Both the position numbers and the translations under genes were made by a program. From a virus (lineage: Duplodnaviria; Caudoviricetes), in IMG/VR virus record IMGVR_UViG_3300014208_000023, positions 352,001 to 416,000 of that record: a stretch of 64,000 nucleotides of DNA; one strand, written 5' to 3'. How positions within the stretch are numbered: position 1 is the stretch's first letter; the number at the start of each line of letters is the position of its first letter. This document shows positions 12,077-13,546 of the stretch, one piece after another. The notes under the pieces were generated by a model. That model was not told where the DNA came from and ran no database searches. It saw only the letters and a list, made by a program, of their open reading frames with translations.

Positions 12077-12105
12077 AACGTAGACACTTCGGCACTACTT
12101 GTCAA
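12077..12105 (-). promoter_or_regulatory. sigma70-type promoter inside gltX 3' end
   Basis: TTGACA-17 nt-TACGTT. Confidence 0.7.
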
Positions 12106-13546
12106 GACCAGTAAGGCGGGACGCGCCTATTTCCAGCCTTTTGATTGACGAGCGGCGGCCGAGGGTCGCCATCACCTGGAATAATTCGGGTGAATGAGAC
12201 CTGCCGGTCAGTGATAGCCGCATGAATCCACCCAGCTCCTTTAGTGATAGGTCGTTTTCGACCAACCAGTTTTTGGTCAATTGCCGAAGATGATCCTCTC
12301 CCCAAGCCGGGTCTGAATCAAGAGCGGTAATTAGTGTGGATACTTTTTCGCGAACCTTCATAGAAACATCCTTGAAATCAGGATTCTCTATCGTGTCAAT
12401 TACGAACGGCATCATTTCGTCTGCCGCCTCAACTAGAGTATGTGCCCTAGCTCTCACCAAAGGCATTGCTGCTCGTAGCTTGGCCGAAGTAAAAGCGTCT
12501 TCTACCAACCCCTTTTTCTTTAGGAAAGGGAGAAGCATTTTCTCATACTCGTCAGTTGATGTAAGAGCCTCACTTTTAAGATGCTCATACTGCACTGAAG
12601 TGAATTTCTTCATGTCGAATTTGCCATCGTTCTTGCCGCAATCTTCAATTGCGAAAAGATCAATCATCTGGTCAAGAGAAAATATCTCTTGATCTTTATG
12701 AGACCATCCAAATCGAACAAGGTAATTAAGAATTGCGTGTGGAGTAAATCCCATCTCTCTAAACTCTGCGACCGACACTGAGCCATCTCGCTTTGAGAGT
12801 TTTCCACCGGCCGCGTTCAGAAGCATTGGGAGGTGACAATATATCGGACGCTCTAGTTTTAGAGCATCAGCAATCATTACCTGTTGCGGAGTATTTTTAA
12901 GATGATCTGACCCGCGGATAACGTGAGTAATATTGTCGATGACAAGATCATCAATGCAATTGGCAAAATTGAATAGCGGGATTTCGCTGTGCCGGAGGAT
13001 AACAAAATCATAGTTCTCCTTATTTGGAACGCTTCTTTTACCAAAAGCAACGTCCTCGTAATCGGTGGTTCCTTCGGTTGGAGCCTTGAATCGGATTACG
13101 AATGGCTTATCTAGGCGCTCTTTAATATCCCTACATGTACCGGGATATTTGAATGGATGCTTTGGATTCTTTGCCATGGCCTCGTCTCTGGCCTTGGTAA
13201 GCTCCTCCTCGGTGCAATAACACCTATAAGCGTCTCCCTGCTCAAGTAGCTGCTCTGCATACTTTTTGTATGTAGGAAGCCGCTCCATTTGCGTATATGC
13301 CCCTGCTGGACAATTATCAGTTCCCCATCCCATTGTAGGAGTGAGTCCAAGCCAGTTTAGCTCTGATAGAATCTTTTCAGCACCCTGATCCACTACTCTT
13401 GCGGTATCAGTATCCTCAATACGAAGGACGAAATCAGCGTCATACTTACGAGAGAATAGGTAGTTGAAAAGAAACGTCTTGGCATTTCCTACGTGAAGGG
13501 TGCCAGAGGGTGATGGGGCGCAACGCACTCGGAATTTTTTCGACAT
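12095..13546 (-). CDS. gltX: glutamyl-tRNA synthetase
   Basis: PSPSGTLHVGN (HIGH), LRIEDTD, CYC..YPGTC Zn site, HVIRGSDHL, KLSKR (KMSKS), C-terminal anticodon-binding domain. Confidence 0.97.
   Translation of the reverse strand: MSKKFRVRCAPSPSGTLHVGNAKTFLFNYLFSRKYDADFVLRIEDTDTARVVDQGAEKILSELNWLGLTPTMGWGTDNCPAGAYTQMERLPTYKKYAEQLLEQGDAYRCYCTEEELTKARDEAMAKNPKHPFKYPGTCRDIKERLDKPFVIRFKAPTEGTTDYEDVAFGKRSVPNKENYDFVILRHSEIPLFNFANCIDDLVIDNITHVIRGSDHLKNTPQQVMIADALKLERPIYCHLPMLLNAAGGKLSKRDGSVSVAEFREMGFTPHAILNYLVRFGWSHKDQEIFSLDQMIDLFAIEDCGKNDGKFDMKKFTSVQYEHLKSEALTSTDEYEKMLLPFLKKKGLVEDAFTSAKLRAAMPLVRARAHTLVEAADEMMPFVIDTIENPDFKDVSMKVREKVSTLITALDSDPAWGEDHLRQLTKNWLVENDLSLKELGGFMRLSLTGRSHSPELFQVMATLGRRSSIKRLEIGASRLTGLDK

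Follow-up and report, generated by a model that had tools for sequence, protein, structure and literature searches.

Why would a bacteriophage keep an aminoacyl-tRNA synthetase of its own, and which tRNA would such an enzyme charge? The question is raised by positions 12095-13546 of a 64,000-nt stretch of viral DNA (the window), which corresponds to positions 352001-416000 of the IMG/VR record IMGVR_UViG_3300014208_000023. This segment encodes a bacterial-type glutamyl-tRNA synthetase (GluRS) with a complete domain set. In our reading, to which we assign a probability of about 0.62, it would be a working, probably discriminating enzyme, vertically inherited after a single ancient capture in a family of 350-430-kb phages, where it would boost Glu-tRNA(Glu) charging. 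An initial annotation, made from the letters of the window, had already described a full-length GluRS on a phage-like genome; here we examine that description and what may be built upon it.

A complete GluRS on a phage replicon

The window is part of a single circular contig of 428,320 bp whose ends share a 22-nt overlap, and the IMG/VR record indicates direct terminal repeats, with the genome rated 100% complete by CheckV. Among its products, PHROGs profiles recognize a tRNA nucleotidyltransferase, i.e., a CCA-adding enzyme (genome positions 233457-235070, minus strand; locus L131), a portal protein (227626-229500, 2e-50) and the large terminase TerL (229524-231365, 1e-56), and 365 of the 433 long open reading frames (ORFs) share one strand. 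The Pfam models Phage_sheath_1 and Terminase_6N found no match in the genome, and no 16S rRNA gene exists in its 428 kb. Portal, terminase, direct terminal repeats and the lack of 16S rRNA identify the replicon as a phage genome, so that the cellular chromosome that the initial annotation had kept in view as an alternative can be set aside.

The protein reaches 426.5 bits against the NCBIfam equivalog TIGR00464 (gltX_bact; cut-off 289.95), covering profile positions 2-464 of 470, and its scores with the GluQRS, archaeal GluRS and GlnRS (glutaminyl-tRNA synthetase) models lie far under their own cut-offs. Its best matches among solved structures, aligned end to end, are bacterial GluRS (8i9i, 1e-81; Thermus thermophilus 1g59, 6e-75), and it is 35% identical to Escherichia coli GltX by BLASTP. 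Family model, Pfam domains (Table 1) and phage hallmarks thus bear out the description of a full-length GluRS in a phage. An identity as GluQRS (YadB), which consists of a catalytic domain only, was considered and rejected, since this protein also has an anticodon-binding domain and reaches just 109-200 bits with the models for GluQRS, whose cut-offs are 250-453.

Residue conservation was counted over 31 phage-clade sequences (44-85% identical) and 64 correctly read sequences from Polyangia; 16 of the 80 Polyangia ORF extractions were in the wrong frame and were excluded. In the Thermus enzyme, Arg5, Glu41, Tyr187 and Arg205 are residues of the glutamate pocket, Tyr187 touching the glutamate side chain. 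The equivalents of Arg5, Glu41 and Arg205 in the phage enzyme (R8, E44 and R211) are invariant throughout the phage clade, as are H215, K249, K252, C109, C111 and C138, while H18, S251 and R367 are nearly so. S251, the counterpart of E. coli Ser239, is Ser in 29 sequences and Thr in two. The position of Tyr187 is occupied by Phe in 15 phage-clade sequences and by Tyr in 16, and by Tyr in all 64 of the Polyangia. Furthermore, the fourth position of the HIGH motif is Asn in 30 of the 31 phage-clade sequences and Gly in Polyangia.

The zinc ligands of the E. coli enzyme (C98/C100/C125/H127) align with C109/C111/C138/D140, and position 140 is free to vary among the phage relatives (D12 N10 S5 T2 Y1 H1). 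The E. coli-type four-ligand pattern C-x-C-x(n)-C-x-H is therefore broken at its fourth position, D140; zinc may still be held by the three cysteines and some other ligand. The annotation had taken all motifs, the zinc site and the anticodon-binding domain as retained, which holds for HIGH, KMSKS and the anticodon-binding domain, and needs qualifying at the fourth zinc ligand (Asp) and at the Tyr187 position (Phe).

The suggestion that an Arg within RARAHTL may be the C36-reading Arg of discriminating GluRSs fared better. The HMMER alignment to 1g59 places the query VRARAH over MRPRFD, pairing R367 with R358, and this position is Arg in 29 and Lys in two of the phage-clade sequences. The rule linking this residue to discrimination is not universal, as mutating the corresponding Arg was without effect in GluRS1 of Helicobacter pylori (Dasgupta and Basu, 2014; PMC3927822).

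Other features set the phage clade apart and could mark this phage family: HxGN replaces HIGG, the segment MGWGTDNxPAG is inserted after residue 70, and an additional residue precedes ITH.

A single origin and a conserved gene order

Relatives of the enzyme were found by an alignment-based scan; a blastn search of the phage collection with the gene gave zero matches and a single-protein query of viral contigs returned none. The nearest proteins, 85-47% identical, are encoded on metagenome contigs, several of which measure 249-430 kb. Eight loci are syntenic, namely L002 (249 kb), L003, L004 (353 kb), a 430-kb contig, L005 on the 406-kb, 95%-complete genome G001, L006 on the 32%-complete fragment G002, L126 and L127. 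They represent seven distinct contigs, L003 being a short contig whose GluRS protein is identical to that of L002. The conserved order consists of small upstream ORFs, GluRS, further small ORFs, a 285-aa ORF, a 5'-3' exonuclease and an array of paralogs of about 500 aa; L005 and L006 display the same gene set with wider spacing. Since this order recurs across at least seven related huge-phage contigs, the GluRS gene has been handed down within the family and was not acquired recently.

A quick IQ-TREE phylogeny (LG+G4, 81 sequences), with supports from the Shimodaira-Hasegawa-like approximate likelihood ratio test (SH-aLRT), points in the same direction. Two Polyangia entries of the first tree (L020, L031) were misread ORFs and were later dropped, and L098 was omitted as truncated. 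All the megaphage-type GluRS sequences group together (SH-aLRT 99); their sister is a Polyangia clade (likewise 99), and the joint node has a support of 88. The GluRS of the 636-kb LR756504 and the 735-kb LR756501, only 29-32% identical, and those of three other IMG/VR contigs are placed elsewhere in the tree and therefore represent independent captures.

The affinity to Polyangia is also seen in similarity searches. In a pattern-limited scan of GTDB species genomes, 80 of the 80 best cellular matches were Myxococcota, and an unrestricted word-based search named only Polyangiaceae and Pendulispora among its best cellular matches. The Polyangia enzymes (Labilithrix, Nannocystis, Polyangiaceae, Pendulispora) share 44-48% identity with that of the phage, the Arg that reads C36 and the same three Cys; they differ in having HIGG, Tyr at the Tyr187 position and 66% GC, and in lacking the phage-clade insertions. 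The phage gene has a GC content of 46%, and of 45% at third codon positions (GC3), slightly over the phage average, against 66% and a GC3 of 87-92% in Polyangia gltX, and has thus largely taken on the composition of the phage. Of the five Polyangia genomes tested, four contain a GlnRS above the cut-off and all five contain GatB. The same Arg in Polyangia, together with GlnRS in four of the five genomes, is consistent with a discriminating enzyme lineage.

Mosaicism of the two domains

The history of the gene is not the same along its whole length. Compared with the query, the proteins P0007-P0011 have an identity of 66-77% over the catalytic part and of 32-44% over the anticodon-binding part, whereas P0012, P0020 and P0026 show 48-54% and 56-61%, respectively. 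When the tree is built from residues 330-480, P0012, P0020 and P0026 join the query group in one clade (SH-aLRT 99); imposing the same grouping on the catalytic-domain tree costs 301 log-likelihood units and is rejected by the approximately unbiased (AU) test, with a p-value of 1e-5 that is optimistic because the group was defined after viewing the alignment, the effect being nevertheless large. Given that the domain trees conflict and that P0012 and P0020 are located on syntenic phage contigs (loci L126 and L127), domains have been exchanged among phages of this family; the pattern indicates that the catalytic and the anticodon-binding domains recombined between related phages. The mobility of the C-terminal domain has been proposed before for bacterial GluRS2 (PMC3927822).

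Phage tRNAs and other synthetases

ARAGORN and Rfam agree that no canonical tRNA-Glu exists in the 64-kb window, as the initial annotation had stated, and its eight tRNA mimics and one tRNA-Gln are confirmed there. That the enzyme would be left with those RNAs only does not hold, given that a search of the rest of the genome reveals a tRNA-Glu(UUC) outside the window (genome positions 28189-28264, minus strand; locus L107 90-165, minus strand), whose anticodon loop has the usual seven bases and whose CCA is encoded. This tRNA carries A73, and G2.U71 where the tRNA-Glu of Minicystis rosea has U2-A71. In E. coli tRNA-Glu this pair is U2-A71. The anticodon arm of the phage tRNA-Glu(UUC) matches that of M. 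rosea tRNA-Glu(UUC) at 15/15.

Altogether, the genome encodes 14 canonical tRNAs with 13 distinct anticodons, 10 of which begin with U and serve A-ending codons, including AGA, ACA, AAA, GCA, GAA, CAA, GGA and CUA. The phage has a GC3 of 33%, and 63% of its Glu codons are GAA. Both here and in L002, the tRNA-Gln(UUG) is located some 5 kb upstream of GluRS.

The Glu/Gln catalytic family is present at a single locus and is the only one matched among nine catalytic-core Pfam families searched. PF00133, PF00587, PF00152, PF00750, PF00579 and PF09334 had no match in the genome, the synthetases for Cys, Phe and Ala and the alpha/beta GlyRS (glyQ/glyS) not having been searched. GatB_N found no match in the phage genome either.

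RNAs with a sealed anticodon loop

The eight mimics are tRNA-shaped RNAs whose anticodon loop is closed as c-UUCG-g. A covariance model built from 13 copies (R1) counts eight of them in this genome, three in L002, one in L004 and three in tandem in G001, as well as a truncated copy at the contig end of L126; with the same model, none appeared in the 32%-complete fragment G002. They are thus found in every relative whose upstream region was searchable. An exact-pattern search and nhmmer had suggested that G001 was without mimics, which R1 overturned. The three G001 copies (G001:C1:375996-376245; locus L099 5597-5846, minus strand) are diverged and UUCG-sealed, keep G1-C72 and G2.U71 and show compensatory stem changes. 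The tRNAs of G001 are a tRNA-Ile and a tRNA-Lys; it has neither tRNA-Glu nor tRNA-Gln, yet it has GluRS and mimics. In the 428-kb genome, five of the eight mimics have no encoded CCA, and the phage has its own CCA-adding enzyme.

The mimics have in common with the phage tRNA-Glu the pairs G1-C72, G2.U71, U11-A24 and U13.G22 and, like it, contain A46 in a variable loop of 4 nt (alignment A4). They further resemble it in A73, found in 12 of the 13 aligned copies (G in that of L004), and in a U-U-C triplet in the loop. Within the tRNAs of this phage, G2.U71 occurs only in tRNA-Glu and in the mimics, as read by eye from the printed sequences. Identity elements for the E. coli GluRS include U11-A24, U13.G22..A46 and the absence of nucleotide 47.

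The isotype signals differ among methods: ARAGORN proposes 'Glu|Arg', R1 points to tRNA-Gln and the comparison by hand to tRNA-Glu-type features. Indeed, R1 finds no match to tRNA-Glu, and its best cellular match (47.5 bits) is a Minicystis tRNA-Gln(UUG) located in a tRNA array. This array, at about 8.254-8.266 Mb of the M. rosea chromosome (L108, L140, L143), comprises some 50 tRNA genes in about 13 kb, many of them duplicates. BLAST of one mimic against 81 Myxococcota genomes gave short chance matches only. As GluRS and the mimics are both clade-wide, their co-occurrence neither supports nor excludes a link between them.

Coordinates and genomic neighbourhood

Table 1. Features of the GluRS locus and its surroundings (window positions unless a genome is named).
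Feature	Position	Strand	Basis
GluRS (gltX) coding sequence, 483 aa, ATG start	12095..13546	-	ORF translation; TIGR00464 over cut-off
Class I catalytic domain including acceptor-binding insertion, residues 5-315	12602..13534	-	Pfam PF00749 tRNA-synt_1c, E 1.6e-84
All-helical bacterial-type anticodon-binding domain, residues 336-473	12128..12541	-	Pfam PF19269 Anticodon_2, E 5.7e-21
HIGH motif, H18-V-G-N21	13484..13495	-	Alignment A1; residue counts
KMSKS motif, K249-L-S251-K-R253	12788..12802	-	Alignments; residue counts
Phe192, equivalent of Thermus Tyr187	12971..12973	-	HMMER alignment to 1g59
Putative zinc cluster, C109-x-C111...C138-x-D140	13127..13222	-	BLASTP against E. coli GltX; residue counts
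Arg367 (second Arg of RARAHTL), equivalent of Thermus Arg358 (C36 reader) and E. coli Arg350	12446..12448	-	
88-aa ORF upstream of GluRS, kept in relatives	13548..13814	-	Sequence; tblastn against L002, L003, L004
Non-coding stretch past the GluRS stop codon	11834..12094	-	No Rfam match at E up to 1
Seven tRNA mimics (c-UUCG-g)	17881..19967	-	Covariance model R1
Eighth mimic copy	34817-34890		Covariance model R1
tRNA-Gln(UUG), inside the mimic array	18430..18503	-	ARAGORN; Rfam
Array of ~500-aa paralogs	2171-8428	-	
Array of ~500-aa paralogs, G001	339253-346452		
Array of ~500-aa paralogs, G002	18380-25501		

The TGA stop of the 88-aa ORF lies 1 nt ahead of the ATG of GluRS, with a GAGG about 8-11 nt upstream of this ATG; the spacing and the GAGG suggest a translational coupling of both genes. 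The gap 3' of GluRS is about 260 nt here, 289-413 nt in L002, L004, L126 and the 430-kb contig, and 15 nt in L127. A promoter and terminator scan around the gene gave nothing above chance.

In every relative, four to seven copies of the ~500-aa paralogs, with an invariant W-D..T.S.RG...CQ.W motif, are found downstream of GluRS. An AlphaFold model of one of them (predicted local distance difference test, pLDDT, 73.7) has weak PDB matches to GNAT proteins (RimI, SSAT; E 0.04 or worse), and no aminoacyl-tRNA transferase, of Fem, L/F-transferase or MprF type, figures among its top 50 PDB matches. Pfam searches at E up to 1 on ten neighbouring proteins returned nothing meaningful.

Weighing the possible roles

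How would such a gene serve the phage? In the reading that we favour, GluRS would have been captured once, in an ancient event, and then have descended vertically, its closest cellular relatives being the Polyangia enzymes. During infection it would add Glu-tRNA(Glu) charging capacity, acting on the phage tRNA-Glu(UUC) where present and otherwise on the tRNA-Glu of the host, and in this way an AT-rich, GAA-rich phage transcriptome would be translated in a probably GC-rich cell. We hypothesize a GC-rich myxobacterial host because the phage GluRS is sister to that of Polyangia, the codon usage of the phage is AT-rich and its tRNA set matches that usage.

Several points weigh against this interpretation. 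Polyangia are only candidate hosts, since the link to them comes from one gene tree with a support of 88 at the sister node. The 95%-complete G001 keeps GluRS without a tRNA-Glu, and a dedicated pair of phage enzyme and phage tRNA is therefore not the general rule. Across the clade, mimics keep company with GluRS; a role confined to translation leaves them unexplained, as it does the retention of GluRS alone among the nine synthetase families searched. Finally, the two substitutions, Phe for Tyr187 and Asp for the fourth zinc ligand, could change the function of the enzyme.

Some of these difficulties would be relieved if the phage GluRS were a spare part against host defence, sustaining translation and keeping the stringent response off when the GltX of the host is inactivated, for instance by abortive-infection kinases of the HipA family. 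HipA phosphorylates GltX at Ser239, setting off the stringent response (PMC8262856), and a HipA-like kinase with a DUF3037 partner constitutes an experimentally supported stand-alone anti-phage system (PMC12548924). Such a function would account both for GluRS being the sole synthetase kept and for its presence in G001 without a phage tRNA-Glu. We regard it as unlikely, since the target serine (S251) is retained, with no sequence hint of resistance, no HipA-type system is linked to this phage or host and, for most HipA-like defence kinases, the substrates are not known. It appears highly improbable, in turn, that the enzyme is non-discriminating and charges the phage tRNA-Gln(UUG) with Glu as well, the resulting Glu-tRNA(Gln) being converted to Gln-tRNA(Gln) by the GatCAB of the host. 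The proximity of this tRNA to GluRS in two genomes, the GatB of all five Polyangia genomes, the one among them without GlnRS above the cut-off, the GlnRS pseudogene reported in Sorangium (PMC3927822) and the H. pylori exception to the Arg358 rule would fit such a route. Nevertheless, both the phage clade and Polyangia conserve Arg367, a true GlnRS exists in four of the five Polyangia genomes, the phage has neither GatB nor a second Glx synthetase, and G001 retains GluRS without any tRNA-Gln.

The mimics lead to a different proposal, which we consider very unlikely: GluRS might glutamylate them, making non-decoding Glu carriers for a non-ribosomal transferase such as the GNAT-like paralogs, or might be bound or regulated by them. 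Their tRNA-Glu-like acceptor, D-helix and variable-loop features speak for a partnership, and so do their presence wherever GluRS was accompanied by a searchable upstream region, the case of G001, with both partners and no tRNA-Glu, and the rapid evolution and exchange that single out the anticodon-binding domain within the enzyme. However, a c-UUCG-g tetraloop should be unable to present U34, U35, C36 and A37 as GluRS reads them, and R367 is conserved; R1 misses tRNA-Glu and prefers a tRNA-Gln; the paralogs display a weak GNAT fold only, with no signal of an aminoacyl-tRNA transferase and no Pfam match; and no LanB-type domain was detected in a Lant_dehydr_N search in which the controls were silent too. 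The co-occurrence itself is uninformative when both features are clade-wide. The boldest extension, and the least probable of the ideas considered here, joins GluRS, the UUCG-sealed RNAs and the arrays of GNAT-like paralogs into one system of non-ribosomal glutamyl transfer or of GluRS regulation. If this were true, the exchanged, fast-evolving anticodon-binding domain would recognize, and perhaps charge, RNAs unable to decode. A probably discriminating GluRS that serves translation continues to be our preferred reading.

Relation to known synthetases and significance

Synthetase genes of huge phages, including a tree of their GluRS, have been published before (Al-Shayeb et al., 2020, Nature, Extended Data Fig. 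7a; PMC7162821), and the view of the initial annotation that synthetases are uncommon phage cargo is not valid for huge phages, in which as many as 15 have been reported in one genome. That such a phage should carry a GluRS is, taken alone, no surprise. As in those phages, a full-length bacterial-type GluRS, akin to the cellular enzymes yet distinct from them, is found here in a genome of >200 kb with tRNAs, and the role proposed for theirs was the charging of phage tRNAs. Whereas the published example is placed near Bacteroidetes, the clade described here has Polyangia (Myxococcota) as its sister group, and unlike the synthetase sets of huge phages, GluRS is here the only synthetase found among the nine families searched.

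With the T. thermophilus enzyme (1g59, 1n78) and E. coli GltX (8i9i), the phage protein shares domain order, the HIGH and KMSKS motifs and the equivalents of Arg5, Glu41, Arg205 and Arg358, as well as, with GltX, the C-x-C...C cluster. It departs from discriminating bacterial GluRSs in having HxGN in place of HIGG or HVGT, Phe for Tyr187, Asp for His127 and the clade-specific insertions. Chimeric GluRS2 (Dasgupta and Basu, 2014; PMC3927822) offers a parallel in the differing phylogenies of its catalytic and anticodon-binding domains, although here the exchange occurred among one phage family, the C36-reading Arg was kept and there is no hint of tRNA-Gln specificity. What is new in this case is the single origin and synteny within one phage family, the affinity to Polyangia, the domain mosaicism and the constant company of mimics.

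GluRS constitutes a stable, single-origin marker of this family of 350-430-kb phages. Moreover, a sole kept synthetase in the constant presence of tRNA look-alikes that do not decode represents an inexpensive test case for biochemistry. From a broader perspective, the mosaicism indicates that phages shuffle synthetase modules, which bears on the evolution of tRNA specificity.

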